From: Escherichia coli O157:H7
GTDB taxonomy: Bacteria; Pseudomonadota; Gammaproteobacteria; Enterobacterales; Enterobacteriaceae
Reading direction: 5' to 3' (one strand)
DNA length: 64,000 nt
Assembly: GCF_013167455.1 (NCBI RefSeq)
Contig: NZ_CP038328.1
Of the stretch, positions 25,885 to 43,939 are shown one piece after another. The notes beneath the pieces are model-generated. The model worked only from the letters and a program-made list of their open reading frames with translations. It did no database searches and was not told the origin of the DNA. Both the position numbers and the translations under genes were made by a program. Within the stretch, counting starts at the first letter, position 1; each line of letters begins with the position of its first letter.

Positions 25885-27453
25885 TTAGCGTGCCGGCTGA
25901 GTAGTCGTGGAAGACTGCTCAAAGTGATAGCGACCGGTTTTCAGGCTGCTTGGGCCGAGGCGTGCAAACTTGAACATTAAGAACAATTCTGCCACCAGGA
26001 ACAGGGTATACAGGCCGCAAATCAGCACCATTGAGAAGATGAGATCGCCTGCGGTCAGTGACGAGTTCGCCACAGCTGTCGGCAGCACTTCACCGATAGC
26101 CCACGGTTGGCGGCCATATTCAGCCACGAACCAGCCCGCTTCTACAGCAATCCACGGCAGCGGAATACCGTACAGCGCGGCGCGCAGGAGCCATTTTTTC
26201 TCGCCAATGCGGTTGCGGATGACACTCCAGAAAGAGAGCGCGATGATTGCCAGCAGCAGGAAGCCACACGCCACCATGATACGGAACGCGAAGTACAGCG
26301 GCGCTACACGCGGAATGGAGTCTTTGGTTGCCTGTTGAATCTGCGCTTCAGTCGCATCAGCCACGTTTGGCGTATAGCGTTTCAGCAGCAGACCGTAACC
26401 GAGGTCCTTCTTCATGCTATTGAACTGGTCACGAACCGCCTGGTCGGTAGAACCAGAACGCAGTTGTTCGAGCAGAGAGTACGCCTTCATCCCGTTACGA
26501 ATGCGTTCTTCATGCTGCACCATCAGTTCTTTCAGGCCGATAACTGGAGTATCCACGGAACGCGTTGCAATTATGCCCAGCGCGTAAGGGATCTGGATCG
26601 CAAATTTGTTCGTCTCCTCTTCCTGATCAGGAATGCCGAACAGAGTAAAGGCAGCAGGCGCAGGTTGCGTTTCCCACTCAGCTTCAATAGCAGCCAGTTT
26701 GGTTTTCTGCACGTCGCCCATTTCGTAGCCGGATTCATCACCCAGAACAATAACAGACAGAACGGCAGCCATACCGAAGCTGGCAGCGATAGCAAAGGAG
26801 CGTTTAGCGAAGGCGAAGTCACGACCTTTCAGCATATACCATGCGCTGATACCGAGGATGAACATCGCGCCAGTCACATAACCAGACGCTACAGTGTGAA
26901 CGAATTTCACCTGAGCAACCGGGTTAAGCACCAGCTCGGAGAAGCTCACCATCTCCATACGCATAGTTTCAAAGTTGAAATCGGACGCGATTGGGTTTTG
27001 CATCCAGCCGTTCGCAACCAGAATCCACAGTGCGGACAGGTTTGAACCGAGCGCCACCAGCCAGGTGACACACATATGCTGAACTTTACCCAGACGATCC
27101 CAACCGAAGAAGAACAGACCTACAAAGGTGGATTCGAGGAAGAAGGCCATCAGACCTTCGATTGCCAGCGGCGCACCGAAGATATCCCCTACATAGTGGG
27201 AATAGTAAGACCAGTTAGTCCCGAACTGGAACTCCATGGTCAGACCGGTAGCCACACCCAGAGCGAAGTTGATACCAAACAACTTGCCCCAGAACTTGGT
27301 CATATCTTTATAAATCTGTTTGCCGGAAAGGACGTAGACCGTTTCCATAATGGCCAGCAGGAACGCCATACCGAGCGTCAGTGGCACAAAAAGGAAGTGG
27401 TACATCGCGGTCAAGGCAAACTGTAAGCGCGACAGTTCGACTATATCTAACAT
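25885..27453 (-). CDS. cydA: cytochrome bd-I ubiquinol oxidase subunit I
   Basis: ORF track 25885..27456; second ATG gives 522 aa [28 protein letters not shown]. Confidence 0.9.
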
Positions 27454-27790
27454 CATGACTCCTTGCTCATCGCATGAAGACTCCGAGAGTGAACCCCGTT
27501 AGAAAGGGTCACACGCATGCCCCAATACAAAATTATTTGCTCGCCTCTATCGTTGCCATTTCATCAAAAGAGGAAAAGACAATGATAAAAAAGTTACAAA
27601 TATGTTAATGAATAAACCAAATTGATCCCGTAATTATATTACGCCGCAAAATCCTTACAATAAACAGGTTTTTATTGAGCAAATTTGCATTTTTCGACAG
27701 TGATCAATTTATAGCGAAATTGTCACGATCTCACCAATTTGATCTACGACAATTTATCGTGTTTTGCAGATTTTTTTCAAGAATTAAAAA

Positions 27791-27804
27791 TTGATTTATA
27801 TCAA
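27791..27804. promoter_or_regulatory. FNR-type site in the cydAB upstream regulatory region
   Basis: TTGATTTATATCAA is a perfect TTGAT-N4-ATCAA match, about 340 bp upstream of the cydA start in a long AT-rich region. Confidence 0.55.
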
Positions 27805-28258
27805 AACCAACCAAATATGTTAATTATGTATAAACCATAGATCATTGGTGATTTTATTGTTAATTTATTGTGAAATATTTATGCAACACAATTATTACAA
27901 TGAAAAGGTATAGATAAAAAACCAGTATTTTATTTAACAGAACCGCCTTATCCACTTTTTATAATACCAATTGATTAGAGTAGCCAATTTGTTGCTATTT
28001 TACATAACATATTTTTATCAAAGTTAATTGATTGTTGCCTTTATGAGCACCGACCGTAAGCCCGTTATGTTATTGTTTCATTAGTAATAATCACTTAAAT
28101 GTATCGATGAAACAGGTATGACTTACCGGGAGTGATTGTTTCTGAGTGAACAGAGGCCACTTTCGCCTGATAAATGAAAAATGAGCGATTTTTGCAAGTT
28201 AGTTTTTCTATAGCCGAGTACGCTCAGCGCCTCGCTTGATTACAATGAGGTTGCTGCT

Positions 28259-29203
28259 ATGAGTCCTGATAATATCGGTTCGGCTGTCAATCGCTTCTCA
28301 GGTTGGCCATCTAATGATTCTCTAAAAACAGATAAAGAATCAATGACATCACCCGTGACTGTGCAGGTAATAAAGATGATTGCCGCCATCCTTGACCCAC
28401 ATCGGATAGTCGTTGGAATTGATACACTTTATACAACGCAGCGCGAAACATTTACCTCAGAGAGTCAACAGCTCATTGAATCAGCATTGCAAACACTTCA
28501 TGTGATGAATTTAAATAATCTGGAAACAAATCGCGATGAAGAAAGTCACTATCTGGCTTTTGAATATAACGTTGACACCTCTGACAGAATAACCGTTTCT
28601 GCTTATAATGAAAAAAAACCTGGCTGCTATGGCCAATGTCTTGTAATACAGGATGACGAAACAGACTTATTTAACCTGATAAAAATTAAAATTTTCGAAG
28701 CCAGGCATAATTATGTCGCTCAATTGATGAGCGATCCGGAATTTATGTTCAAATTCAGTTATAGCGCTCAACAAAATAGATTAGAACCTCATCTTCTGGT
28801 TCCCGCTTATTTCCCTCTAAAAACAAACGAACCGGTTACGCAAGAGGATGTACTGTTACTTTATCGTTTCTTTAAAATGAATGATGATTTTAATAAATTA
28901 ACATCAGATGAATACATGAGTATCCTGACACCTCTGATGAAGTGTGAGCGTAGCGTCCACGACAACAACAGGTATGTGACGGGCAAAGATACCCTTCTTC
29001 TGGACTATCCTCCTTCTGGTAACCAGATACATTTCCATGTTTTCCCTGACGAATCAGCAACACTAGTCCTTTATTTTTCAAACAATGACATTGAATGTTT
29101 CGTCTTTGAAAGAGATATTCCGAGCCAGTATCGCTTTTTCAAAATGTTTACCAATCTGGCACTGGTTATAGATCAGTTAACCGAAGCCAATAAAATACTT
29201 TAA
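28259..29203 (+). CDS. hypothetical protein, 314 aa, no recognisable family (AT-rich gene)
   Basis: 945-nt ORF in markedly AT-rich DNA where chance ORFs of this length are unlikely; no motif recognised by eye; start could alternatively be the internal ATG near 28345. Confidence 0.6.
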   Translation: MSPDNIGSAVNRFSGWPSNDSLKTDKESMTSPVTVQVIKMIAAILDPHRIVVGIDTLYTTQRETFTSESQQLIESALQTLHVMNLNNLETNRDEESHYLAFEYNVDTSDRITVSAYNEKKPGCYGQCLVIQDDETDLFNLIKIKIFEARHNYVAQLMSDPEFMFKFSYSAQQNRLEPHLLVPAYFPLKTNEPVTQEDVLLLYRFFKMNDDFNKLTSDEYMSILTPLMKCERSVHDNNRYVTGKDTLLLDYPPSGNQIHFHVFPDESATLVLYFSNNDIECFVFERDIPSQYRFFKMFTNLALVIDQLTEANKIL

Positions 29204-29284
29204 TTTTCTATATATCCCCTATGGCAAATATTGCTAAACAATGCCTGGGGATTAATTTTTATTACTCACGGAAAGATTTAAATA

Positions 29285-29707
29285 ATGATACCATCTCAGA
29301 TCTCTTTCAATACCCTTCCAGTCAATGCAACATACGCTTCAGAGACAACAGTTGACACACAAAAATTCTCTGACATCCTCTACTCAGCGGGGTGTTCCCT
29401 AAAGGATATGGCTTATCTGAGCAGATGTCTGGCATCAATACACCCGACTCTCGCCAAAAACATTTATGAAACAGAAAATCTCAGCGATCAAAAATTACTA
29501 CATATTGATTGCCGTAGTACAAATGAAATCAAGATAAATATCTTTTTTGGTCAACAACGAGAAGGATTAATTGAAATTAATTCTGACACAGTCATTTTTT
29601 CGATATTGTCTTCATTAATTGACTCCGCCATTTCTAAATTTCAACACCAAATCCCCGTTAACGGTTCAGTTAATCGTGAACTATTGTATGAGGATTATAC
29701 TGATTAA
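29285..29707 (+). CDS. hypothetical protein, 140 aa, no recognisable family (AT-rich gene)
   Basis: 423-nt ORF 81 bp downstream of the 314-aa ORF, same strand and similar composition; no signal peptide or motif recognised. Confidence 0.55.
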   Translation: MIPSQISFNTLPVNATYASETTVDTQKFSDILYSAGCSLKDMAYLSRCLASIHPTLAKNIYETENLSDQKLLHIDCRSTNEIKINIFFGQQREGLIEINSDTVIFSILSSLIDSAISKFQHQIPVNGSVNRELLYEDYTD

Positions 29708-30254
29708 ATCCACCCTGTCGCGAAAAATGGCCTGCGTTATTGCCAGACGTAATAAAACCTTTGATTAACGTTACTCATACTGATAGCACCTTCATGTACC
29801 TCTCTTTTTTACGAAAAATTAAAAGAGCTAACTAAGGTCATAATTCGCATGAATCATTAACCATTTGTTATTTTCAACATTATTTTTACATTAAGCAGAG
29901 ATGAATTGCAGTGAAATTCGACTTAAATCTTATGAAATGCATTTACTCATGGCTAAAACCACGTCACAAAAATGCAAATTAGAAGTAGATCACAATTATC
30001 TCAATACATTAAATCAAGTTAATTTTAAAAATTTAACACTCATGACATTAGTTGACATAACACACTGAATTAACATGGAAATTTAAAAACACACTTCAAA
30101 CAATCATTTCCCGAAAGACATTTTGAAAATAGATCAATTGCAACATTACGGTCAGATAAAGACACTCCTGTGATATTAAACCTGTGCCGTTATGAACGGC
30201 CATAAATACGACGTGTGTAACTTATTTTACTCTCTGTCTTACAAAGGATTACCC

Positions 30255-30704
30255 ATGAAGAAAGCAACACTTGTGATTGGCGTTATTGGCGCGGACTGCC
30301 ATGCAGTAGGCAATAAAGTTCTGGACCGCGTTTTTAGCAACCACGACTTCAGAGTCATTAATCTGGGCGTAATGGTCAGCCAGGACGAATATATTGATGC
30401 TGCCATTGAAACTGGCGCTGACGCGATTGTCGTCTCCTCTATCTATGGGCATGGCGATATCGACTGTCTGGGCATGCGCGAACGCTGCATCGAGCGTGGA
30501 CTGGGGGACATCCTGCTCTATGTGGGCGGTAACCTGGTGGTCGGAAAACATGACTTCGCTGACGTGGAAACCAAATTCAAAGAGATGGGATTTGATCGCG
30601 TCTTTGCCCCAAGTCATGACTTAGAAGATGTTTGCCAGCTGATGGCCCACGATATCAACCAACGTCATGACGTTGATACTCGTATTCTTGAAGAGGCTAT
30701 CTGA
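30255..30704 (+). CDS. mamA: glutamate mutase (methylaspartate mutase) S subunit, B12-binding
   Basis: ORF track 30192..30704; ATG at 30255 gives 149 aa [22 protein letters not shown] with the cobalamin-binding DxHxxG motif (DCHAVG); closely resembles clostridial GlmS/MutS. Confidence 0.88.
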
Positions 30705-32092
30705 TGCAAATCGTCTCTGTCGATATTGGATCGACGTGGACCAAAGCAGCCCTCTTTACCCGGGAGGGGGACGCGTTAACGTTGGTTAACCACGTACTGA
30801 CCCCAACCACCACCCATCATCTGGCGAAGGGGTTTTTCTCCAGCCTGAACCAGGTGTTAAACGTAGATAATGCCCTCCCCCTGTTAAACAGCGGTGAGGT
30901 TGCATTGAAGTATTCCTCCTCTGCCAAAGGTGGGCTGGCGGTTGCCGCAATGGGATTGGTGCCTTCTATCACCCTGGAAACCGCGAAAGTAACCGCTCAC
31001 TCTGCGGGTGCTAAAATTGCGCAATATTACGCCTACAAGCTGAACCGCCGTGATATCCAGGCACTGGAAGAAACGCAGCCCGATATTCTCTTGTTCACCG
31101 GCGGCACCGACGGCGGAGAAGAAAGCTACGGACTGAATAACGCCCGTGTGCTGGCAGAATCCAAACTCGACTGCGCCATTATTTATGCCGGAAACCGGGA
31201 TATTCAGGACGAGGTGCAGGAGATCCTCGGGCATAAAGACCTGACCATTGTCGACAACGTTCTGCCCGATCTTGACCATCCGAACCCTGTAGCTGCACGC
31301 CAGGCTATTTGCGACATATTCCTTAAACGCATCGTTAAAGGGAAAGGGCTGGATGTCATTGTTGATAAAACAGGCGAAGAACCAATGCCGACACCATGGA
31401 CGGTCTTTGAACTGGTCAAGGCAATCAGTAACGTCGATCACAGCTGGAAAGAGTTCATGCTGATCGACATGGGCGGCGCAACCACCGATGTTTATTCCGC
31501 CTGTGCCAACACGCTCTCGCCCGACACCGTTTTACACGGCGTACCGGAACCCTTCGTAAAACGGACGGTGGAAGGCGATCTGGGAATGCGCGTCTCGGCA
31601 GTGGTGGTTGGTGAAAGTGCGAAAGAGTTAGTCAATGTGAATTTTGCTCAGCAACCCGCACAGCTGGACGCTTTTTATCATTACCTCCGTCATCTAGTCG
31701 CTCATCCCGACTACTTACCCGCAAATGCAGAAGAGAAATATTTCGATACCGTCCTGGCCGGACTGTGTGTGGGTTATGCCACCGAAAGACATGCGGGCAC
31801 CAAAAAAGAGGTCTGCACCTGCGTCGGCAATGTCGATTTACAGATGGGACGTGACCTGACAACCGTGCGTAAAGTCGTCGGATCCGGCGGATGGCTCTCG
31901 CGTGCCAGTCAGTTCGATATGCATCACTGGTTGAAATACCGCGAGTTAAACGACGACGGTAAACGCATTCTCTTACCGACCGAATTTGAATATTACCGCG
32001 ATTCCCGGGGGCTATTACCACTGCTGGCAAACGTCGCCAGAGTCGATCCGCTGGCCGCCGCGCGCACCAGTATTCAATGCTTAACCCTATAA
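30704..32092 (+). CDS. glmL: glutamate mutase-associated protein GlmL/MutL (actin-like ATPase fold; proposed chaperone/reactivase)
   Basis: 462 aa ORF whose start overlaps the S-subunit stop by 1 nt; lies between S and E subunits as in clostridial operons. Confidence 0.7.
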   Translation: MQIVSVDIGSTWTKAALFTREGDALTLVNHVLTPTTTHHLAKGFFSSLNQVLNVDNALPLLNSGEVALKYSSSAKGGLAVAAMGLVPSITLETAKVTAHSAGAKIAQYYAYKLNRRDIQALEETQPDILLFTGGTDGGEESYGLNNARVLAESKLDCAIIYAGNRDIQDEVQEILGHKDLTIVDNVLPDLDHPNPVAARQAICDIFLKRIVKGKGLDVIVDKTGEEPMPTPWTVFELVKAISNVDHSWKEFMLIDMGGATTDVYSACANTLSPDTVLHGVPEPFVKRTVEGDLGMRVSAVVVGESAKELVNVNFAQQPAQLDAFYHYLRHLVAHPDYLPANAEEKYFDTVLAGLCVGYATERHAGTKKEVCTCVGNVDLQMGRDLTTVRKVVGSGGWLSRASQFDMHHWLKYRELNDDGKRILLPTEFEYYRDSRGLLPLLANVARVDPLAAARTSIQCLTL

Positions 32093-32110
32093 CAATTAAG
32101 GCTGCAATCA

Positions 32111-33556
32111 ATGGAACTTCGAAATAAGAAATTAACCCATGACGAATTCATGACCGAGCGGCAACAGGTACTGAAAACCTGGGAAACCGGCAAGGATGTT
32201 GAAAACTTTGAAGATGGCGTTAAATACCAACAAACCATCCCTGAGCATAAACGTTTCTCTCTTGCGCTGCTGAAAGCAGACAAGGAAGGTAAAACCCTTA
32301 GCCAACCGCGCGCAGGTGTGGCGCTGATGGACGAACACATCGAACTGCTGAAAACACTACAAGAAGAGTGCGATCTGCTGCCAAGCACCATCGATGCATA
32401 TACCCGTCTGAATCGGTACGAAGAAGCGGCTGTAGGGATTAAAAAATCCATCGAAGCCGGAACCTCTAAACTGAACGGTTTACCGGTAGTTAACCATGGT
32501 GTCGCAGCTTGCCGTCGCCTCACCGAAACCCTGCAAAAACCGCTACAGATCCGCCACGGCACGCCAGATGCGCGTCTGCTGGCTGAAATCTCAATGGCCA
32601 GCGGCTTTACCAGTTATGAAGGCGGTGGCATTTCCTACAACATTCCGTATGCCAAACGCGTAACGCTGGAAAAATCGATCCGCGACTGGCAGTACTGCGA
32701 CCGTTTAATGGGGATGTATGAAGAACACGGGATCCGCATCAACCGCGAACCGTTTGGCCCACTAACGGGTACGCTGATCCCGCCGTTTATCTCGCACTCT
32801 ATCGCGATAATCGAAGGCTTGCTGGCGCTGGAACAGGGTGTGAAATCTATCACCGTTGGTTATGGCCAGGTCGGCAGCCTGACGCAGGATGTTGCGGCGA
32901 TCCAGTCTCTGCGTGAACTTGCACACGAATATTTTCAGAGCTATGGCTATACCGACTATGAATTGAGTACCGTGTTTCACCAGTGGATGGGCGGCTTTCC
33001 GGAAGACGAATCGAAAGCGTTCGCTATTATCTCCTGGGGCGCAGCCGTCGCGGGGATGTCTGGTGCCACCAAAGTCATCACCAAAAGTCCGCACGAAGCC
33101 TGGGGTATCCCGACTGCCGCTGCCAACATTCAGGGGCTGAAAGCCTCCCGCCAAATGCTCAACATGGTCAATGAGCAGAAATTCCCGCCGTGCCCTGCGG
33201 TTGAACTGGAAATTGAACTGATTAAGAGCGAGGTTCGCGCGGTACTGAATAAAGTGTTCGAACTGGGTAATGGTGATATTGCGCGCGGAACGGTGCTGGC
33301 ATTTGAAGCGGGCGTACTGGATGTGCCGTTTGCGCCAGCCGCCTGCAACGCGGGCAAAATTCTTCCGGTCCGTGACAACACCGGCGCGATACGCGTACTG
33401 GAAGCCGGAGCCGTTCCATTGCCAAAAGATATTCTCGACCTCCACCACGATTACGTTGCGGAACGCGCACGCTGTGAAGGACGCCAACCGACATTCCAGA
33501 TGGTTGTAGATGACATCAATGCTGTATCCCACAGTAAATTAATAGGAAGACCATAA
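32111..33556 (+). CDS. glmE: glutamate mutase (methylaspartate mutase) E subunit, catalytic
   Basis: 481 aa ORF MELRNKKLTHDEF...QPRAGVALMDEHIELLK...LPSTIDAYTRLNRYEE, closely resembling clostridial GlmE. Confidence 0.9.
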   Translation: MELRNKKLTHDEFMTERQQVLKTWETGKDVENFEDGVKYQQTIPEHKRFSLALLKADKEGKTLSQPRAGVALMDEHIELLKTLQEECDLLPSTIDAYTRLNRYEEAAVGIKKSIEAGTSKLNGLPVVNHGVAACRRLTETLQKPLQIRHGTPDARLLAEISMASGFTSYEGGGISYNIPYAKRVTLEKSIRDWQYCDRLMGMYEEHGIRINREPFGPLTGTLIPPFISHSIAIIEGLLALEQGVKSITVGYGQVGSLTQDVAAIQSLRELAHEYFQSYGYTDYELSTVFHQWMGGFPEDESKAFAIISWGAAVAGMSGATKVITKSPHEAWGIPTAAANIQGLKASRQMLNMVNEQKFPPCPAVELEIELIKSEVRAVLNKVFELGNGDIARGTVLAFEAGVLDVPFAPAACNAGKILPVRDNTGAIRVLEAGAVPLPKDILDLHHDYVAERARCEGRQPTFQMVVDDINAVSHSKLIGRP

Positions 33557-34797
33557 TGAAAATAAAACAGGCTCTGTTCACCGCTGGCTACTCCTCATTC
33601 TATTTCGATGACCAGCAGGCGATAAAAAACGGAGCGGGTCATGACGGCTTTTTTTATACCGGGGAGCCAGTAACACAGGGGTTTAACGCCGTACGTCAGG
33701 CCGGGGAGTGCGTATCGGTACAGTTGATTCTGGAAAACGGCGCGGTCGCCGTAGGTGACTGTACTGCCGTACAGTATTCCGGGGCAGGCGGTCGCGATCC
33801 ACTGTTCCTCGCAGAGCACTTTATTCCGTTCCTCAACGACCATATCAAGCCATTACTGGTAGGCCGCGATGTGGATGCTTTCCTGCCGAATGCCCGTTTC
33901 TTCGACAAATTGCGTATTGACGGCAACTTGCTGCATACCGCCGTGCGCTACGGATTATCACAGGCGCTGCTTGATGCTACCGCGCTGGCAACCGGCCGTC
34001 TGAAAACTGAAGTGGTCTGTGATGAATGGCAGTTGCCACGCGTGGCGGAATCCATTCCATTATTTGGTCAGAGCGGCGACGATCGATATATCGCCGTCGA
34101 TAAGATGATCCTTAAAGGCATCGACGTGCTGCCCCATGCGCTGATTAATAACGTCGAAGAGAAGCTGGGCTTTAAAGGTGAAAAACTGCGCGAATATGTC
34201 CGCTGGTTGTCGGATCGCATTCTAAGCAAGCGCACCAGCGCACGCTACCACCCTACCCTGCACATCGATGTATACGGCACTATCGGTCTGATCTTCGATA
34301 TGGATCCGCTTCGCTGTGCGCAATACATCGCCAGCCTGGAAAAAGAAGCGCAAGGCCTGCCGCTCTACATCGAAGGGCCGGTCGATGCCGGTAACAAGCC
34401 CGATCAAATTCGCCTGCTGACCGCGATTACCAAAGAGCTGACGCGCCTCGGTTCCGGCGTGAAAATTGTGGCCGATGAATGGTGTAACACCTACCAGGAT
34501 ATTGTTGATTTCACTGATGCTGCCAGTTGTCACATGGTGCAAATCAAAACCCCGGATCTGGGCAGTATTCACAACATCGTCGATGCGGTTCTTTACTGCA
34601 ACAGCCACAGCATGGAAGCGTACCAGGGCGGCACCTGCAATGAAACTGATGTCAGTGCCCGCACCTGTGTCCACGTCGCCCTTGCCGCTCGCCCCATGCG
34701 TATGCTGGTAAAACCAGGGATGGGCTTTGACGAAGGCCTCGATATCGTCTTCAACGAAATGAATCGTACTATCGCGCTGTTGCAGGCTAAGGATTAA
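33556..34797 (+). CDS. 3-methylaspartate ammonia-lyase (beta-methylaspartase)
   Basis: 413 aa ORF MKIKQALFTAGYSSFYFDDQQAIKNGAGHDGFFYTGE...VQYSGAGGRDPLFLAE, enolase-superfamily MAL; start overlaps the glmE stop by 1 nt. Confidence 0.9.
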   Translation: MKIKQALFTAGYSSFYFDDQQAIKNGAGHDGFFYTGEPVTQGFNAVRQAGECVSVQLILENGAVAVGDCTAVQYSGAGGRDPLFLAEHFIPFLNDHIKPLLVGRDVDAFLPNARFFDKLRIDGNLLHTAVRYGLSQALLDATALATGRLKTEVVCDEWQLPRVAESIPLFGQSGDDRYIAVDKMILKGIDVLPHALINNVEEKLGFKGEKLREYVRWLSDRILSKRTSARYHPTLHIDVYGTIGLIFDMDPLRCAQYIASLEKEAQGLPLYIEGPVDAGNKPDQIRLLTAITKELTRLGSGVKIVADEWCNTYQDIVDFTDAASCHMVQIKTPDLGSIHNIVDAVLYCNSHSMEAYQGGTCNETDVSARTCVHVALAARPMRMLVKPGMGFDEGLDIVFNEMNRTIALLQAKD

Positions 34798-34800
34798 CAA

Positions 34801-36171
34801 ATGGCTCGTTCTTTTAAAGTCTTATCGCCAACGGCAATCCTCGGGTATGGATTCCCGGAAGAGAGCTTCCGCAAAGCGATGGCAGAATCGCCCGATCTGA
34901 TCGCCGTTGATGCAGGCTCTTCCGATCCAGGCCCCCACTACCTCGGGGCAGGCAAACCGTTTACCGATCGCGCAGGGGTCAAGCGCGATCTGCGCTATAT
35001 GATCACCGCAGGCGTGCAAAATAATATACCGGTGGTGATCGGAACGGCTGGCGGTTCTGGTGCCGCACCACACCTGGAGTGGTGCCGAGAAATAATTCAT
35101 GAGATTGCCCGGGAAGAGCACCTCTCGTTCTCGATGGCGTTGATCCCGGCAGACGTTGACAAAGCCATCGTCCACCAGGCGCTGGATAACGGCAAAATCA
35201 CGGCGCTGGATTTTGTCCCGCCGTTAACCCACGACGCGATTGACGAAAGTACGTATATCGTCGCGCAAATGGGCATCGAACCCTTCCAGCGGGCGCTGAA
35301 AGAACGCGCGCAAGTGGTGCTGGGCGGGCGCGCTTACGACCCGGCCTGCTTTGCTGCGCTCCCGATCATGCAAGGCTTTGATGAAGGTCTGGCGCTGCAT
35401 TGTGGGAAAATCCTTGAATGCGCGGCAATCGCCGCAACGCCCGGCTCAGGCTCTGACTGTGCGATGGGCATCATTGATGACAACGGCTTTACGCTGAAAA
35501 CATTTAATCCGAAGCGTAAATTTACCGAAACGTCAGCAGCTGCACACACACTGTATGAGAAATCCGATCCCTACTTCCTGCCAGGACCTGGCGGCGTGTT
35601 GAACCTGAAAGGCTGCACATTTAAAGCAGTAAATGACGGCGAAGTCTACGTCAGCGGTTCTAAGCATGAAGAAACGCCGTATGCCCTGAAACTGGAAGGT
35701 GCACGACGGGTGGGCTTCCGCTGTCTGACCATCGCCGGAACGCGCGACCCGATTATGATCGCCGGGATCGATAAAATCATCGATGAAGTCAAAACCAGCG
35801 TTTCGCGTAACCTGTCGCTCGACGATGACAGCATTCGCATCAATTTCCACCTGTACGGCAAAAACGGGGTGATGGGAGACCATGAACCGATGCAAACTGC
35901 CGGGCATGAGCTGGGGATTGTCCTTGATGTAGTTGCACCGACCCAGGAAATTGCCAACAGCGTTTGCTCGCTGGTGCGCTCTACCATGCTGCACTACGGC
36001 TATGAAAACCGCATCGCTACCGCAGGTAATCTGGCGTTCCCGTTCTCCCCTTCTGATATCCAGGGCGGGCCGGTATACGAATTTTCCATATATCACCTGA
36101 TTGAAGCCAACGACGCTCTGCGTTTTGATTTCCATATTGAACAGGTGACGCCAGAAGGAGTTCAGGCATGA
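34801..36171 (+). CDS. uncharacterised conserved protein, 456 aa (possibly DUF1446/AtuA-like; assignment from memory, unverified)
   Basis: ORF begins 3 nt after the MAL stop; Gly-rich segment GTAGGSGAAPH; no characterised catalytic motif recognised. Confidence 0.6.
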   Translation: MARSFKVLSPTAILGYGFPEESFRKAMAESPDLIAVDAGSSDPGPHYLGAGKPFTDRAGVKRDLRYMITAGVQNNIPVVIGTAGGSGAAPHLEWCREIIHEIAREEHLSFSMALIPADVDKAIVHQALDNGKITALDFVPPLTHDAIDESTYIVAQMGIEPFQRALKERAQVVLGGRAYDPACFAALPIMQGFDEGLALHCGKILECAAIAATPGSGSDCAMGIIDDNGFTLKTFNPKRKFTETSAAAHTLYEKSDPYFLPGPGGVLNLKGCTFKAVNDGEVYVSGSKHEETPYALKLEGARRVGFRCLTIAGTRDPIMIAGIDKIIDEVKTSVSRNLSLDDDSIRINFHLYGKNGVMGDHEPMQTAGHELGIVLDVVAPTQEIANSVCSLVRSTMLHYGYENRIATAGNLAFPFSPSDIQGGPVYEFSIYHLIEANDALRFDFHIEQVTPEGVQA

Positions 36172-36485
36172 AACAGTCAATTGTCTCACTGGCGCAAGTC
36201 ATTCGTTCGAAAAATGCCGGACCTTACGAACTGGTTTTAGATATTTTATTTAAAACGAAAGAAAACTATGAGCGAGTTAAATCATCAGGGCAATTAACCC
36301 CAGAACTGATTGCACGCTTATATCATGTTGAACCTGACTTTATTCATCGTATTGTCTGGTTTGATCCTTCTAACGCAGTAAAAATCGTCATGCCACGAGA
36401 TATTATCTCCGGGAATGTAGGTGACAATGATGTCTATGGTGCACAGCAACATGCACCTTTATTAAATATGAGTTTCGATTTGTAA
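36168..36485 (+). CDS. uncharacterised small protein, 105 aa (possibly DUF4387-like; unverified)
   Basis: ORF overlapping the preceding gene by 4 nt (ATGA), indicating translational coupling. Confidence 0.55.
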   Translation: MKQSIVSLAQVIRSKNAGPYELVLDILFKTKENYERVKSSGQLTPELIARLYHVEPDFIHRIVWFDPSNAVKIVMPRDIISGNVGDNDVYGAQQHAPLLNMSFDL

Positions 36486-36568
36486 AAATCCGAATACTTT
36501 TAGCCAACTGACATCCCGTCACTTATTGCAGTTCAACACTTCAGCTATTTGTAAGGTTGTAATAGCAG

Positions 36569-36600
36569 GTAGATGCCTGAATCTCTATTCAGGCATCTAC
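36569..36600 (+). terminator. Perfect 14-bp inverted repeat (terminator or operator candidate)
   Basis: GTAGATGCCTGAAT-CTCT-ATTCAGGCATCTAC between the 105-aa ORF and the transporter gene; only a weak T-run follows. Confidence 0.45.
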
Positions 36601-36645
36601 TTCTCCTGATTCTGATTTATCGCCGTGCACCTGATGGAGGAAAAA

Positions 36646-37926
36646 ATGAAGAAAATAAGTTTAACCACGATGATTCTTTTGGCGCTGGTACTTGGAATGA
36701 TTATCGGCGTAGTGCTCAATAACACTGCTTCACCGGAAACCGCAAAACTCTATGCGCAAGAAATATCGATATTCACGACGATTTTCTTACGACTGATAAA
36801 AATGATTATCGCTCCGTTAGTGGTCTCTACCCTGGTGGTAGGTATTGCTAAAATGGGCGATGCCAAAGCCCTTGGTCGTATTTTTTCTAAAACACTCTTT
36901 TTATTTATTTGCGCCTCATTGCTGTCAATTGCCTTAGGCTTGATAACGGTAAATTTCTTCATGCCAGGTACAGGAATTAATTTTGTTGCACACGGTGCCG
37001 AAACCACCGGAGTGGTCGCGGCAGAACCCTTTACGCTAAAAGTATTTATTTCGCATGCTTTCCCCACCAGCATTGTCGATGCCATGGCGCACAATGAAAT
37101 TTTGCAAATCGTGGTGTTCTCAATTTTCCTCGGCTGTAGCCTGACGGCGATTGGCGAGAAAGGCAGCGCCATCGTTCACGCCTTAGATTCGCTGGCACAT
37201 GCCATGTTAAAGCTCACTGGCTACGTCATGCTCTTCGCTCCCCTGACCGTATTCGCTGCTATTTCAGCATTGATTGCTGAACGAGGACTGGCAGTTATGG
37301 TGAGCGCCGGGATCTTTATGGGTGAATTTTATTTCACCATGTTATTACTTTGGGTACTGCTTATCGGTCTGGCCATCGTTTATGTCGGCCCCTGCATCAG
37401 ACGCCTGACCCGCGCCCTTTCGGAACCCGCCCTGCTGGCATTTACCACATCCAGTTCTGAAGCGGCTTTTCCGGGAACGCTTGAAAAACTGGAGCAATTT
37501 GGCGTTTCCCCCAAAATTGCCAGCTTTGTCTTACCCATTGGCTACTCATTTAATCTCGTTGGATCAATGGCCTACTGCTCCTTCGCCACAGTTTTCATCG
37601 CCCAGGCCTGCAATATCCATTTATCCATCGGTGAGCAAATCACCATGCTGTTGATCCTGATGTTGACCTCGAAAGGAATGGCTGGCGTACCACGCGCCTC
37701 AATGGTGGTTATCGCCGCCACGCTCAACCAGTTCAATATTCCGGAAGCGGGGCTGATCTTGCTGATGGGCGTTGATCCGTTCCTTGATATGGGGCGTTCC
37801 GCGACAAACGTCATGAGCAACGCAATGGGCGCTGCGATGGTGAGTCGGTGGGAAGGCGAACATTTCGGCGAGGGCTGTCGGGGTAAAGCATTAAAACCCA
37901 ATGAATCGAACGTTGCTCTGCCCTGA
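36646..37926 (+). CDS. dicarboxylate/amino-acid:cation symporter (GltP/DctA family), probable glutamate or C4/C5-dicarboxylate uptake
   Basis: ORF track 36625..37926; ATG at 36646 is preceded by GGAGG; multi-TM protein MKKISLTTMILLALVLGMIIGVVLNN. Confidence 0.75.
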   Translation: MKKISLTTMILLALVLGMIIGVVLNNTASPETAKLYAQEISIFTTIFLRLIKMIIAPLVVSTLVVGIAKMGDAKALGRIFSKTLFLFICASLLSIALGLITVNFFMPGTGINFVAHGAETTGVVAAEPFTLKVFISHAFPTSIVDAMAHNEILQIVVFSIFLGCSLTAIGEKGSAIVHALDSLAHAMLKLTGYVMLFAPLTVFAAISALIAERGLAVMVSAGIFMGEFYFTMLLLWVLLIGLAIVYVGPCIRRLTRALSEPALLAFTTSSSEAAFPGTLEKLEQFGVSPKIASFVLPIGYSFNLVGSMAYCSFATVFIAQACNIHLSIGEQITMLLILMLTSKGMAGVPRASMVVIAATLNQFNIPEAGLILLMGVDPFLDMGRSATNVMSNAMGAAMVSRWEGEHFGEGCRGKALKPNESNVALP

Positions 37927-38033
37927 GGGGGATCTTAAGCAATCAGAAGCCAATGACTACGCATTTTTATAAGCCGGATCATGAAGTTAGACGGCAATTA
38001 AGTAACACTAACGTTTAAGGTGAAAAGTGAAAT

Positions 38034-39686
38034 ATGTCCAAACCATTTATCTGGCAAGAACCGTTTCTACAAAATAAAGACGGTACAGAATATACATTAA
38101 TTAGCGATCAACATATTACAGTAACGGAATTAGACGGCGAAGAAGTGATAAAAATCGCTCCTGAAGCATTAACGCTGCTTGCCCGGCAGGCATTTTATGA
38201 AGCCTCTTTTTTCTTACGTTCCGCTCATTTGCAACAGGTCGCCAGCATTCTTAACGATCAGCAGGCCAGCAGTAATGATAAATACGTTGCGTTGCAGTTA
38301 TTACGTAATGCTGAAGTCTCAGCAAAAGGGGTATTACCCAACTGTCAGGATACCGGCACCGCAACTATTGTTGCCAGTAAAGGGCAACAGATATGGACCG
38401 GAGGTAACGACGCCGAAGCCTTAAGTAAAGGCATTTACAGTACTTTCCAGGAAAATAATCTGCGCTTTTCACAAAATGCGCCGCTGGATATGTATACCGA
38501 AGTCAATACGCAAACCAATCTCCCGGCGCAGATTGATATCAGCGCTGTCGCTGGTGATGAGTACCATTTTCTCTGTGTTAATAAAGGGGGCGGCTCCGCC
38601 AATAAAGCCGCGCTTTATCAGGAAACCAAATCCTTATTGCAACCAGAAAAACTGACCGCATTTTTAATCGAAAAAATGAAATCGCTGGGCACCGCTGCCT
38701 GCCCGCCTTACCACATCGCCTTTGTCGTCGGAGGGCTTTCAGCCGATCAAACCTTAAAAATTGCCAAGCTGGCCTCAACGAAATATTACGACAATTTGCC
38801 CACCAGCGGAAACGAGCAGGGACAAGCATTCCGTGATATTGAGCTGGAAAAAGTGTTGCTCGAGGCCAGTCAGCAATTTGGTATTGGTGCGCAATTTGGG
38901 GGTAAATATTTCGCTCATGATATTCGCGTCATTCGTCTGCCGCGTCACGGTGGCTCTTGCCCGATAGCTATGGCGCTCTCCTGTTCTGCCGATCGCAATA
39001 TCAAAGCAAAAATTAACAAACACGGTATCTGGCTGGAAAAACTCGAACACAATCCGGGGCAATATATTCCAGCCTCACTGCGGGAAGAAAATCACGCGCA
39101 ACATGTACAACTGGATCTAAACCGTCCGTTGCGTGACGTGATGCAGGATCTCGCCAGATTACCAGTAGGCACCCGCGTGTCGTTAAGTGGTCCCATCGTA
39201 GTGGCGCGCGATATCGCCCACGCCAAAATAAAAGCGCGGCTGGATAGCGGCGAACCGATGCCGGAGTACCTGAAGCATCATATTGTCTATTACGCTGGCC
39301 CGGCGAAAACACCGGAGAACATGGCCTGCGGTTCACTGGGTCCAACCACGGGCGGTCGAATGGACGGTTATATCGATACCTTCCAGGCGGCTGGCGGCAG
39401 TCTAGTGATGTTATCGAAAGGTAACCGCAGCCAGCAGGTCACCGATGCCTGTCACAAACATGGCGGCTTCAATCTGGGAAGTATTGGCGGTGCAGCTGCG
39501 TTACTGGCGCAAGAATATGTCAAAAGTCTGCGTTGCCTGGAATACCCGGAGCTGGGTATGGAAGCGGTGTGGATGATGGAAGTGGAAAATCTGCCCGCAT
39601 TCATCCTGGTAGATGATAAAGGCAATAATTTCTTTAGTCAGTTTGAGCAGCAACACCGCTGCGCCAGTTGCCCTGCGGGACATTAA
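38034..39686 (+). CDS. fumD: class I (Fe-S) fumarate hydratase paralogue, FumD-type mesaconase/fumarase
   Basis: 550 aa ORF closely similar to FumA/FumB over its length ([38 protein letters not shown]), located in the glutamate mutase cluster. Confidence 0.85.
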
Positions 39687-39695
39687 GGAAAATGA

Positions 39696-40298
39696 ATGGA
39701 AGCGCGAATTTCAACTGAACGGCATGTGCAGCGCCAACAGAAATTGAAGGAACAGGTCGATACGCGCGTCGCGGCGGCGATAGAGAAAAAAGGGATCTTG
39801 ATTGTTTTCACCGGCAACGGCAAAGGGAAATCCACTGCCGCGTTTGGTACTGTGACGCGCGCGGTGGGTCATGGCAAAACGGTGGGGGTTGCGCAGTACA
39901 TCAAGGGGCAATGGGACAACGGCGAATACAACCTTCTCCAGCCGCTGGGGGTTGAGTTTCATATTATGGGAACCGGTTTTACCTGGGAGACACAGAACCG
40001 GCAAGCGGATATCGACGCGGCGAAAGAGGTCTGGTCGGAAAGCAAACGGATGCTGGCTGACAAGCGTTACGACTTAGTGGTGCTTGATGAGCTGACCTAT
40101 ATGCTGGCTTACCATTATCTGGATACCGAAGAAGTGATCGCTTCTCTGCAAAACCGCCCGGCACAACAAAGTGTCATTGTCACCGGACGCGGTTGCCACA
40201 GTCAGATATTAAAAATGGCAGATACGGTCAGCGAAATCCGCCCCGTCAAACATGCTTTTGATAACGGCATTCAGGCCCAGCCGGGTATCGACTGGTAA
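39696..40298 (+). CDS. cob(I)alamin adenosyltransferase, BtuR/CobA family
   Basis: 200 aa ORF with P-loop FTGNGKGKSTAAFG and strong resemblance to E. coli BtuR. Confidence 0.85.
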   Translation: MEARISTERHVQRQQKLKEQVDTRVAAAIEKKGILIVFTGNGKGKSTAAFGTVTRAVGHGKTVGVAQYIKGQWDNGEYNLLQPLGVEFHIMGTGFTWETQNRQADIDAAKEVWSESKRMLADKRYDLVVLDELTYMLAYHYLDTEEVIASLQNRPAQQSVIVTGRGCHSQILKMADTVSEIRPVKHAFDNGIQAQPGIDW

Positions 40299-40301
40299 TA
40301 A

Positions 40302-40334
40302 CTGCGCCTGGCATCCCGCCAGGCGCAGGTTTTA
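40302..40334. terminator. Bidirectional hairpin between convergent adenosyltransferase and LysR genes
   Basis: CTGCGCCTGG-loop-CCAGGCGCAG followed by GTTTTA; overlaps the LysR stop codon. Confidence 0.5.
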
Positions 40335-41237
40335 CATCTCCTGCGGTACGACCGATTTCGCCAGCAACCATTCACGAAATTGCTGCAAGTGCGGTGAGTC
40401 AGACTTCTCTTCCTGCCACGTCATAATAAAACGATTACCGGTACGAATAGGCACATCACAGGGAATCACCATATCGCCACTATCCAAATCATGTTGAATA
40501 GCGAAACGTGGTAACAGCGCCACGCCGAGATTAGAGCGCACGGCGGCAATCAGCATTGAAAGCAAATCGAAACGTGGTCCGTTGTTGACCAGCGGACTGC
40601 TAACGCCAGATAAAGCAAACCACTCTTCCCAGCCAGTAATACGGGTGCTTTGATGCAGAAGTGGTAACTCAGTAAGCAGTTCTGCCACTGACAGTTTTTG
40701 ATCGGACATTGCAAGCAAACTGCCGCTGCATACCGGCAAAATCTCCTCTTCAAAGAGATATTCTACTTCCGCCCAGGGCGCGCAAAAATTTTCGCGCATA
40801 ATGACAGCATCGTACTCCCGATTAAGAAAATCGCCGTTATTAGCTAAAGAATGAATATTAACAATAATATCGGGATGTAACTTTGTGAATTCATGTAAAT
40901 TTGGGATTAACCAGTGGGTACTAAAAGTAGGATTAACGGCAAGTTCAATAACCTGAACCGTAGGCTGCCAGGTCATAATGGTATTGGTATCGCGTTCCAG
41001 CTTATTTAATGTTTCTTTTACTATCCCCAGGTAATACTTCCCTGTATCATTAAGAAAAATGCGTTTTTTAGAGTGTGAAAATAACGGAGTACGTAAAAAT
41101 TCCTCCAGCGCACTTACTTGTCTGAATACTGCACTTTGGGTTAACGCTAACTCCTCTGCCGCTCTGGTATAACTTTCATGACGTGCGACGACCTCAAAAG
41201 TCACCAGCAGTTCCGTTTTAGGTATTTTCCCTCGCAT
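40332..41237 (-). CDS. LysR-family transcriptional regulator
   Basis: 301 aa ORF with N-terminal HTH (LLVTFEVVARHESYTRAAEELALTQSAVFRQVSALE) and C-terminal substrate-binding domain. Confidence 0.85.
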   Translation of the reverse strand: MRGKIPKTELLVTFEVVARHESYTRAAEELALTQSAVFRQVSALEEFLRTPLFSHSKKRIFLNDTGKYYLGIVKETLNKLERDTNTIMTWQPTVQVIELAVNPTFSTHWLIPNLHEFTKLHPDIIVNIHSLANNGDFLNREYDAVIMRENFCAPWAEVEYLFEEEILPVCSGSLLAMSDQKLSVAELLTELPLLHQSTRITGWEEWFALSGVSSPLVNNGPRFDLLSMLIAAVRSNLGVALLPRFAIQHDLDSGDMVIPCDVPIRTGNRFIMTWQEEKSDSPHLQQFREWLLAKSVVPQEM

Positions 41238-41802
41238 AATGCCGTCCCTTAAAAATAGTTTAAACCATCAAAAATACATTACTTATTACGAAGTAATGGT
41301 AACCAAAGCAGCAATAAATAATTTATAAGAATCATGATTGACATTTATAAACCAGTAAGGCTGGCGTGACAAATATCTTAATCAGATAATAATAATCCGA
41401 AAAGCACAGCGCCTTTCGAATTATCCGGAATCACATTAAGTGAAAATTATTAAATTGATATCATTTATCATATCTGTGGATATTATGATAAACAATCAAC
41501 AAAGATTTTATTTTTGATTTATAGCATATCCCTCTAAGAATTTTTGCGATGCTGCAATATCCGGGGTAAAGACCCGATCCTGGCTGACAAATGGCACGAC
41601 TTGACGAAAAGCGGTGAACATCGCTTTTGTTGATTTACTTAACGCTACGGTCAAACGCTGGGAAGCCAGTGCATCAGGTAACGATTCGAAATTCGCCGTC
41701 GTTCTTATTCGTGGCTTGCGGTCGGTTGCGGCAATCCACAGTGGCTGTGGTCATGCAGTCAAGCCTGCAGTCAGATTTCGACCGTGGTTAACCGTTTAAG
41801 GC

Positions 41803-41903
41803 ATAAAAAAGGCCATCATACGATGGCCAACCATGTCGAAACCGACAGCCCTTCGCCATTCCTGTAGAGGGAAGCGGCGAGGGCTATTTCTTATTACAGA
41901 TAT
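41803..41903 (-). ncRNA. sdhX: SdhX (RybD) sRNA region, sucD 3'UTR ending at an intrinsic terminator
   Basis: 3'UTR of sucD on the minus strand ends in GGCCATCGTATGATGGCC plus TTTTTT and contains ACAGGAATGGCGAAGGGCTGTCGGTTTCGACATGG, which I recall as the SdhX region; exact 5' end not determined. Confidence 0.55.
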
Positions 41904-42773
41904 TTATTTCAGAACAGTTTTCAGTGCTTCACCGATATCCGCCAGGCTGCGAACGGTTTTCACGCCTGCGGCTTCCAGAGCAGCGAATTTCTCATCCGCA
42001 GTCCCTTTCCCACCGGCAATGATGGCACCCGCGTGGCCCATACGTTTGCCTTTCGGCGCAGTCACACCAGCGATGTAACCCACAACTGGCTTGGTAACGT
42101 GCTCTTTGATGTACGCAGCTGCTTCTTCTTCAGCGCTACCGCCGATCTCACCGATCATCACGATCGCTTCGGTCTGCGGATCTTTTTCGAACATTTCGAG
42201 AATGTCGATAAAGTTAGAGCCAGGGATCGGGTCACCGCCGATACCGACACAGGTCGACTGACCGAAACCGTAATCCGTGGTCTGTTTAACCGCTTCATAG
42301 GTCAGTGTACCGGAACGGGAAACGATACCCACTTTACCCGGTTTGTGAATGTGACCAGGCTGAATACCGATTTTGCATTCACCCGGAGTGATAACGCCTG
42401 GGCAGTTCGGGCCGATCATACGAACGCCTGCTTCATCCAGCTTCACTTTCACGGTCAGCATATCCAGCGTCGGGATGCCTTCAGTGATGGTGATAATCAG
42501 TTTGATGCCTGCGTCGATGGCTTCCAGAATGGAGTCTTTGCAGAACGGTGCTGGTACGTAGATAACAGAAGCGGTAGCGCCAGTAGCAGCAACAGCTTCA
42601 CGCACGGTGTTGAACACCGGCAGGCCGAGGTGGGTAGTACCGCCTTTACCTGGGGTTACGCCGCCAACCATTTTAGTGCCGTATGCAATGGCCTGTTCTG
42701 AGTGGAAAGTCCCCTGGCTACCGGTAAAGCCCTGGCAGATAACCTTGGTGTTTTTATCAATTAAAATGGACAT
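41904..42773 (-). CDS. sucD: succinyl-CoA synthetase alpha subunit
   Basis: 289 aa [48 protein letters not shown]. Confidence 0.92.
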
Positions 42774-43939
42774 TATTTCCCCTCCACTGCGGCAACAACC
42801 TGCTGAGCTGCATCCGTCAGACCTTTTGCTGCAATAATATTCAGGCCGCTGTCAGCCAGTTTCTTCGCGCCGAGTTCGGCGTTGTTACCTTCCAGACGTA
42901 CCACGACCGGTACGTTAACACCCACTTCCGCTACCGCACCGATGATACCGTCAGCGATCAGGTCGCAACGAACGATACCGCCGAAGATGTTAACCAGAAC
43001 GGCTTTCACTTTGTCGTCAGAGAGGATGATTTTGAACGCTTCGGTTACACGTTCTTTGGTTGCGCCGCCGCCAACGTCCAGGAAGTTAGCCGGTTCGCCG
43101 CCGTGCAGTTTAACGATGTCCATCGTACCCATCGCCAGGCCTGCGCCGTTAACCATACAACCGATGTTACCGTCCAGCGCAACGTAGTTCAGTTCCCACT
43201 GTGCAGCCTGTGCTTCACGCGGATCTTCCTGCGACTGGTCACGCATTTCGCGCAGATCAGGCTGGCGGAACAGGGCGTTGCCATCAGCGCCCAGTTTGCC
43301 GTCGAGGCAAATCAGATCGCCCTGTTTGGTGATGACCAGCGGGTTGATTTCGATCAGCGCCAGGTCGCGCTCCAGGAAAATGGTCGCCAGGCCCATGAAG
43401 ATTTTGGTGAACTGCTGAACCAGTTTACCTTCCAGACCCAGTTTGAACGCCAGCTCGCGTCCCTGATACGGCATCGGGCCAGTCAGCGGATCAAGCGCAA
43501 CTTTGTGGATCAGGTGCGGAGTTTCTTCCGCCACTTTTTCGATTTCCACGCCGCCTTCGGTGGAGGCCATAAAGACCACGCGACGTGAACTACGGTCTAC
43601 AACGGCACCGAGATACAGCTCTTTAGCGATATCGGTCGCTGCTTCAACCAGAATCTGGTTAACCGGTTGGCCATTGGCATCTGTTTGATACGTTACCAGA
43701 CGCTTGCCCAGCCAGTTTTCTGCAAAAGCACGGATGTCTTCTTTGCTGTTTACAACTTTCACACCGCCCGCTTTACCGCGGCCACCAGCGTGAACCTGAC
43801 ATTTCACTACCCACGGACCGGCACCGATTTTTGAAGCGGCTTCTTCTGCTTCGCGCGGAGTAGTACAGGCATAACCCACCGGTGCTGGTAAGCCATAGCG
43901 GGCAAACAGTTGTTTTGCCTGATATTCATGTAAGTTCAT
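42773..43939 (-). CDS. sucC: succinyl-CoA synthetase beta subunit
   Basis: 388 aa [21 protein letters not shown]; stop overlaps the sucD start. Confidence 0.92.

Follow-up and report, generated by a model that had tools for sequence, protein, structure and literature searches.

GcvA, the glycine-cleavage activator of Escherichia coli, is encoded away from its gcvTHP target and acts on this unlinked operon. It is also the best solved-structure match (PDB 8y6u; E = 7e-43, 31% identity over 297 residues) of the LysR-type transcriptional regulator (LTTR) analyzed here, a protein of 301 amino acids encoded on the minus strand at positions 40332-41237 of a 64,000-nucleotide stretch of E. coli O157:H7 (contig NZ_CP038328.1; this whole stretch is hereafter the window). 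Both proteins have the two-domain LTTR layout in common, and the GcvA model NF008352 is the best NCBIfam match of the regulator as well, at 220.9 bits and below the cut-off of 288. The predicted recognition helix, however, reads AVFRQ (within LTQSAVFRQ) as opposed to AVSHQ (TQAAVSHQ) in GcvA, and the genomic context is entirely unlike that of GcvA. Judged by its sequence, the regulator is a GcvA-clade LTTR but not GcvA. The next-best NCBIfam and PDB matches are DsdC, AmpR/PenR and the choline-sulfate regulator (TIGR03418), with scores far below the respective equivalog cut-offs (157 versus 324.8, 145 versus 316 and 118 versus 625). These three are pathway-specific activators with small-molecule effectors and are usually encoded divergently, but their target pathways differ from that of the regulator.

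The same gene is the putative LTTR of the enterobacterial glutamate fermentation cluster described by Kronen and Berg (PLoS One 2015; PMC4682846), where Fig. 5 already shows it as 'LTTR, putative LysR family transcriptional regulator' in a cluster with GltP, FumD and CobA. The fumarase of this island is FumD, the mesaconase characterised in that study. In clostridial glutamate-fermentation clusters (Fig. 4 of the same paper), a cluster-linked GntR-type regulator from a non-homologous family is the presumed functional analogue. A search of the accessible literature by locus tags and by pathway plus LysR found no experimental work on the regulator. Beyond the published cluster, we infer a target, a candidate operator with defined coordinates in front of glmS and, from a comparison of gene orders, that the regulator belongs to the pathway gene set.

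With moderate confidence, we favour the view that the regulator is a pathway-specific LysR-type activator that controls, in trans, the glmS promoter of the B12-dependent glutamate mutase/methylaspartase/mesaconase cluster. In E. coli O157:H7, it would act ~10 kb from its own gene by binding a conserved module that lies upstream of, and overlaps, the -35 hexamer of the weak glmS promoter (30104-30166). Together with a small-molecule effector, the regulator would switch on the genes from glmS to cobO; the activation site would adjoin the -35, and the recognition dyad would lie another 20-30 nt upstream. As a regulator, it is of an ordinary type, a pathway-specific LTTR with a shuffled gene order.

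The regulator and its linkage to the pathway genes

An earlier note on this DNA had described a LysR-type regulator at the distal end of the cluster, and the ATG-initiated open reading frame (ORF) at 40332-41237, the Pfam profiles and the RefSeq annotation all bear this out. An N-terminal winged helix-turn-helix (HTH_1, PF00126; residues 9-66, E = 3.9e-17, 62.4 bits versus a cut-off of 26.6) is followed by a C-terminal effector-binding domain resembling periplasmic binding proteins (LysR_substrate, PF03466; residues 96-293, E = 4e-28, 98.7 bits versus a cut-off of 28), and the total length is close to the ~300 amino acids typical of LTTRs. RefSeq names the protein (WP_001214266.1) 'LysR substrate-binding domain-containing protein'. 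The O157 protein is full length and retains all residues that are invariant in the orthologue group. The predicted recognition helix LTQSAVFRQ is kept within this group, with F38 and R39 being invariant.

In the RefSeq annotation of an identical genome, the gene order is cydA (minus strand), two hypothetical genes, glmS to cobO (plus strand), the LysR-family gene (minus strand) and sucDCBA (minus strand). The presumed target operon (30255-40298, plus strand) comprises glmS, glmL, glmE, the methylaspartate ammonia-lyase gene (mal), an AtuA-like gene, a DUF4387 gene, an SDF-family transporter gene, fumD and cobO. Pfam and NCBIfam scans agree with the RefSeq names of the cluster genes, among which the transporter is a dicarboxylate/amino-acid:cation symporter and FumD is annotated as a class I fumarate hydratase.

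One genome per species was scanned with the orthologue alignment, and the E. coli cluster proteins were mapped by tblastn onto the 55 loci obtained. The regulator orthologues at these loci cover ~15 genera (57-100% identity), and cluster genes (glm, mal, fumD or cobO) lie within the fetched flanks at 52 of them. The other three loci comprise a contig end, a 4-kb contig and a Trabulsiella locus rich in insertion sequences. In a protein search, orthologues ranged from 99% to ~55% identity in Salmonella, Citrobacter, Enterobacter, Klebsiella, Yersinia, Yokenella and others, below which identity falls to ~45% in unrelated betaproteobacteria. Relatives at 43% identity or less, such as that of Leeia (43%), are unlinked to the cluster.

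Five types of gene order can be distinguished. Type A (Escherichia, Salmonella, Citrobacter, Klebsiella, Enterobacter, Lelliottia, Buttiauxella and Pluralibacter; 79-100% identity) adjoins sucD and has lysR convergent with cobO-fumD and the remaining cluster behind; variants are missing cobO (Pseudescherichia vulneris group, ~71%) or both cobO and the transporter gene (E. whittamii). In type B (Yersinia species; 62-64%), lysR is divergent from an operon that starts with genes for a TP-methylase and a GHMP kinase and runs from glmS to the transporter gene, and fumD-cobO lies directly downstream of lysR on the same strand. Type C (Yokenella and Enterobacter sp. ENT03; 57-58%) has lysR divergent from an operon led by FecCD, followed by genes for an ABC ATPase, a TonB-dependent receptor and a periplasmic binding protein, glmS, glmL, glmE, mal and AtuA. 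In type D (Morganella; 61-62%), lysR directly follows cobT and is convergent with transporter-fumD-cobO, and type E (Budvicia and two further enterobacteria; 63-64%) carries cobT, lysR, fumD and cobO on one strand. As all five types keep the regulator with pathway genes, the linkage survives at least five rearrangements, and we take this as evidence that the pathway gene set includes the regulator as an integral and conserved member.

The same synteny bears on a different origin, in which the regulator would be a passenger from another, deleted module such as a set of hut-like genes. A 3' remnant resembling histidine/aromatic ammonia-lyase genes indeed lies immediately upstream of lysR on the same strand, and hut genes occupy this chromosomal site in another E. 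coli lineage. Yet the orthologues in Yersinia, Yokenella, Morganella and Budvicia are linked to fumD, cobO or glm genes, at other sites and without hut genes. Such an origin is very improbable, and membership of lysR in the neighbouring hut-like remnant was rejected on synteny.

Gene order also weakens the premise of the earlier note that a regulator convergent with its cluster is odd. Divergent transcription from the target is frequent among LTTRs but does not define them. It is not the case in the window or in the Salmonella/Citrobacter/Klebsiella type, whereas in Yersinia and Yokenella the orthologue is transcribed divergently to this operon, and GcvA is a precedent for a regulator that is not next to its target. 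The tail-to-tail position is a lineage-specific gene order and not a different mechanism.

Two observations on individual loci may be added. In Morganella (L052/L013), Budvicia (L066), Trabulsiella (L014) and two further loci (L060 and L049), the cobalamin biosynthesis operon ends with cobT, and the regulator gene begins a few tens of nucleotides, at most ~190 nt, behind it; this hints at co-transcription or functional coupling with B12 synthesis. A metagenome bin labelled 'Citrobacter sp.' holds both a lysR that is 100% identical to the E. coli O157 gene (L015) and a separate Citrobacter-type copy (L021; 87%), and is probably mixed.

A conserved promoter module upstream of glmS

The candidate LysR operator (30104-30166, plus strand) consists of a core, ATAGATCAATTGC, that overlaps the -35 hexamer, followed after 17 nt by a weak -10, and all architectures have such a module ahead of glmS. 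The E. coli copy starts with an imperfect dyad, TCATT-N5-AAAGA (30104-30118), centred near -62; LTTR operators usually combine a recognition dyad of the T-N11-A type near -67 or -65 with an activation site near the -35 of the target promoter. A box TGA-N7-TCA (30124-30136) abuts the -35 and ends inside the invariant ATCAATTG (30133-30140), and the -35 itself, TTGCAA (30138-30143), is separated by a 17-nt spacer from the weak -10, GACACT (30161-30166). A transcription start is predicted near 30173, and the ATG of glmS follows at 30255. A 31-nt matrix of the module has a single match in the window (30113-30143), with a score of 40.6 compared to 5.7 for the 99.999th percentile of window scores. 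A sigma-70 consensus scan found no promoter here, and this, together with the weak -10, fits an activator-dependent promoter.

At the glmS promoter, an FNR consensus scan gave no convincing site, and a CRP-like site with two mismatches lies ~190 nt upstream (29979-29994), the overall counts of both scans being near chance. The CTAAT motif of the GcvA type is not seen in the candidate operator. The T-N11-A motif that the earlier note had proposed to search for does not discriminate: counts in four intergenic regions, plain and dyad-filtered, were compared with shuffles, and the plain ones matched expectation (61 versus 60.4, 15 versus 12.9 and 37 versus 35.0) and the dyad-symmetric versions were not enriched.

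The module recurs across genera. Among types A, B and C, the regions upstream of glmS are otherwise unalignable, but all contain ATCAATTG, with CAAG or AAAG 19 nt upstream and a box T(G/T/C)A-N7-TCA that ends inside it. Its TTG opens a -35-like hexamer, and 17 nt further on there is a weak -10 (GACACT, CACACT, CACATT or CATATT). In Salmonella and a Klebsiella-like contig, the same module is located 140-144 nt before glmS, and the E. coli core is identical to the Salmonella and Klebsiella cores. Applied to 1.27 Mb of fetched loci, the 31-nt matrix recovered every glmS promoter. It also detected an additional strong copy (22-24 bits), seen in both Yokenella and ENT03, within the 228-bp lysR-FecCD intergenic region and facing the divergent operon. 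In Yokenella, this copy lies 131-161 nt upstream of lysR with TTGCCT-17 nt-TATATA, which is the canonical LTTR position. Weaker copies precede fumD in Yersinia, Budvicia and relatives. The Yersinia and Budvicia fumD promoters share GATAGA(T/A)CAATTGCTT, a 17-nt spacer and an AATAAT-like -10; their dyad, CTTATT-N4-AATAAG, has its centre ~32 nt ahead of the -35 and thus near -67. When 12 promoters from the three classes (glmS, fumD and lysR-divergent) are aligned without gaps, the alignment has a (near-)invariant core T..ATCAATTG at a fixed distance to the -10-like hexamer.

As a safeguard against circularity, matrices built from one set of promoters only were run over ~21-kb loci of other genera on both strands. 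The Escherichia-type glmS matrix ranks the glmS promoter first and the fumD promoter second in Yersinia, the glmS promoter first in Yokenella and the fumD promoter first in Budvicia, and its top two matches in Enterobacter sp. ENT03 are the glmS promoter and the lysR-divergent site. Conversely, the matrix of the Yersinia/Budvicia fumD promoters ranks 30123-30143 first in the E. coli window, scoring 16.4 versus 10.1 for the next match. The full 51-nt fumD-promoter matrix finds matches only in loci of the Yersinia/Budvicia type and none in E. coli, Salmonella or Morganella. A loose resemblance of the Morganella transporter-gene promoter to the module was not counted as evidence.

Because copies of the module lie divergent to lysR in Yokenella, downstream of lysR in Yersinia and Budvicia, and before glmS where the regulator is nearby, the most economical explanation is that the module is the operator-promoter unit of the regulator. 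Its binding to the module, the activation and the identity of the effector are what we infer from sequence comparison. The recurrence beside lysR orthologues in other genera lends indirect support to the proposal of the earlier note that the target lies within 29708-30254, where the module occupies 30104-30166.

Weighing the target, the effector and the state of the circuit

Alternatively, the regulator might control mainly fumD-cobO (perhaps with the transporter gene) or its own promoter only, with the glmS module being read by an unlinked factor or serving as a plain promoter. The most constant neighbour of lysR is fumD(-cobO), which lies beside or close to it in all architectures but the Yokenella type, and in Yersinia and Budvicia it is the fumD promoter directly downstream of lysR that looks LTTR-like, with its dyad near -67. 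For control of its own promoter, a perfect inverted repeat just upstream of the E. coli lysR (41277-41298) differs by two mismatches from the fumD dyad. However, neither the 107-bp gap before fumD nor the 160-bp gap before the transporter gene contains a fumD-type element in E. coli. The fumD and glmS promoters, moreover, have the same core and recover each other in the cross-scans, and Yokenella carries module copies at both the lysR-divergent promoter and glmS. We therefore regard this arrangement as unlikely.

Several points nevertheless weigh against the regulator acting at glmS. Matrix scans of E. coli did not detect the module in the vicinity of lysR, fumD or the transporter gene. The same result leaves the transporter/fumD promoter, which the earlier note had offered as an alternative target, without the element. 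The genes from glmS to cobO are probably expressed from the glmS promoter, perhaps aided by internal promoters that escaped recognition. Since the core overlaps the -35 hexamer, part of its conservation could reflect the promoter and not an operator. One protein may not read both promoter types, because the dyads differ in sequence and spacing (TCtTT-N5-AAAGA for glmS, CTTATT-N4-AATAAG for fumD), and an 18-nt matrix of the fumD dyad alone has its top matches scattered in AT-rich DNA, none enriched near lysR. Similarity alone does not fix the target either: Citrobacter portucalensis holds a cluster-linked orthologue (86% identity; L031) as well as a paralogue (68%; L010, 10001-10906) that sits among unrelated genes, upstream of an MFS transporter and a porin gene and near diol/glycerol dehydratase genes. 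Finally, the system might be non-functional in O157:H7, as no expressing condition was found for it (PMC4682846).

This last point concerns the physiological record. The earlier note had named glutamate or mesaconate as plausible effectors. In the only biochemical study of the island, anaerobic O157:H7 cultures supplied with glutamate had no methylaspartase activity, whether or not three cobalamins were added, and no tested condition gave cluster expression or glutamate-dependent growth; the fate of the product citramalate and a citramalate-cleaving enzyme were not established in these bacteria (PMC4682846). Because methylaspartase activity was missing with glutamate irrespective of the cobalamins, the result speaks either against induction by glutamate alone or in favour of a circuit that is inactive in this O157:H7 strain. 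In the latter case, regulator and cluster would be a cryptic, decaying remnant in which the regulator sequence is intact and the circuit does not work. Gene remnants flank the island, and shortened regulator variants occur in E. coli and Shigella, of 189 amino acids (a cluster of 180 member sequences) and 279 amino acids (clusters P0074, P0002 and P0004), which suggests circuit decay in some lineages. In O157:H7, on the contrary, the protein is full length with all orthologue-invariant residues present, the glmS module is intact with the same core as in Salmonella and Klebsiella, and all cluster ORFs in the window are intact. Among 5426 complete E. coli genomes, 1127 (about a fifth) carry the island segment at 95-100% identity, and 40200-41700 is 100% identical to many O157:H7 chromosomes. 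Decay in O157:H7 thus appears quite unlikely.

A tentative and rather doubtful extension of the trans-activation model concerns the effector. The regulator and the ATCAATTG-type module might constitute a small regulon linking the supply of B12 with the glutamate mutase-mesaconase pathway, with a pathway intermediate or a corrinoid and not glutamate as effector. The supply side would comprise the TonB-dependent uptake operon of Yokenella, cobO and the location of the regulator gene immediately behind cobT, as seen in Morganella, Budvicia and Trabulsiella. Candidate effectors would be 3-methylaspartate, mesaconate, citramalate or a corrinoid. If true, this coupling would explain the failure to switch the cluster on in enterohaemorrhagic E. 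coli.

Tying the likely regulator to a conserved promoter element provides a handle on the induction of the silent cluster. Overexpression of the regulator, or effector screening on a glmS-promoter reporter, could unlock the pathway and allow a test of any contribution to gut colonisation. The glutamate-fermentation island is also present in many opportunistic enterobacteria.

Surroundings of the regulator gene and the island

As noted earlier, lysR is convergent with the adenosyltransferase gene cobO (39696-40298, plus strand; Pfam CobA_CobO_BtuR, E = 4.7e-64), the two being tail-to-tail with a 33-nt gap. Between their stop codons lies a GC-rich hairpin with an 11-bp stem (40302-40328) that folds on both strands, with -28.1 kcal/mol for the plus and -25.9 kcal/mol for the minus transcript (z = -5.1 and -4.5); none of 200 shuffles folded as well. 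The strong stem agrees with the bidirectional hairpin that had been claimed, but the T-run GTTTTA follows it on the plus strand only and the terminator scan calls that strand only, so a shared bidirectional terminator is an overstatement. The hairpin still adjoins lysR in E. whittamii, which is missing cobO, and was not found in the counterparts from Salmonella, Citrobacter, Klebsiella, Lelliottia and Buttiauxella. Given this distribution, it is an Escherichia-specific 3' structure among the loci checked.

On its other side, lysR has its own AT-rich upstream region, as had been stated, with 27% GC over 41238-41507 (minus strand; likewise 0.27 over 41250-41549). A plausible sigma-70 promoter of lysR, TTGTCA-17 nt-TATAAA, was read by eye at ~41381-41353 on the minus strand. 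A hairpin near 41397-41417, read directly from the sequence, may be an old terminator of the upstream gene remnant. The perfect inverted repeat CATTACTT-N6-AAGTAATG (41277-41298) lies 40-60 nt upstream of the lysR ATG; in E. whittamii, its arms are kept and the spacer is altered. Matches to CTTATT-N4-AATAAG with two mismatches, as in this repeat, are expected 2.27 times per 64 kb and ~0.01 times in the 283-bp lysR upstream region. No second copy of the repeat occurs elsewhere in the window or at the cluster promoters, and it is a weak candidate for an autoregulatory site. The ~400 nt ahead of lysR (~9580-10000 in loci L005, L065, L022, L027 and L035) are strongly kept among Salmonella, Citrobacter and Klebsiella, which is unusual for intergenic DNA. 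This stretch contains, ~60-90 nt before the ATG, a stem (AACTCTCAG...CTGAGAG-like) whose changes look compensatory, and it is unrelated to its E. coli counterpart.

Within the operon, the AtuA-family and DUF4387 gene pair (34801-36485, plus strand) is found in every architecture that includes mal. A perfect 14-bp inverted repeat with a 4-nt loop (36569-36600; -27 kcal/mol, z = -5.4) lies between the DUF4387 and transporter genes. It has no clean T-run and is possibly a partial terminator or an mRNA-stabilising or processing site. A comparable perfect repeat before the transporter gene was present in none of five other loci checked, two of which carry different, shorter or imperfect repeats. 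Rfam scans of positions 27000-43000 and of the Yokenella, Yersinia, Morganella and Budvicia loci matched no RNA family, cobalamin riboswitches included.

Upstream of the operon, two ORFs of low GC content (35-40%) on the plus strand (28259-29203, 314 amino acids; 29285-29707, 140 amino acids) separate the cydA control region from the glmS promoter. Neither matches Pfam, NCBIfam or PADLOC, and both were found in the island of E. coli alone, whereas glmS directly adjoins cydA in Salmonella and Klebsiella. A perfect FNR consensus, TTGATTTATATCAA, is located at 27791-27804 in the AT-rich region upstream of cydA, presumably within the known cydAB control region.

At the other end, the lysR upstream region stops at 41507 against the remnant mentioned above and not at the island border, as sequence shared with K-12 resumes only at ~41797. 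The remnant (41508-41762, minus strand), located between lysR and the sucD terminator, is the 3' part of an aromatic-amino-acid/histidine ammonia-lyase-like gene and does not belong to the regulator. Its counterpart in another E. coli strain is an intact 84-amino-acid 'hypothetical protein', and the longer E. whittamii version matches positions 423-466 of the 466 in the aromatic amino-acid lyase profile (E = 1.4e-5), i.e., the extreme C-terminus. E. coli strain MS1718 (L003) carries hut genes and an RtcB gene at the same sucD-proximal site, which looks like an integration hotspot.

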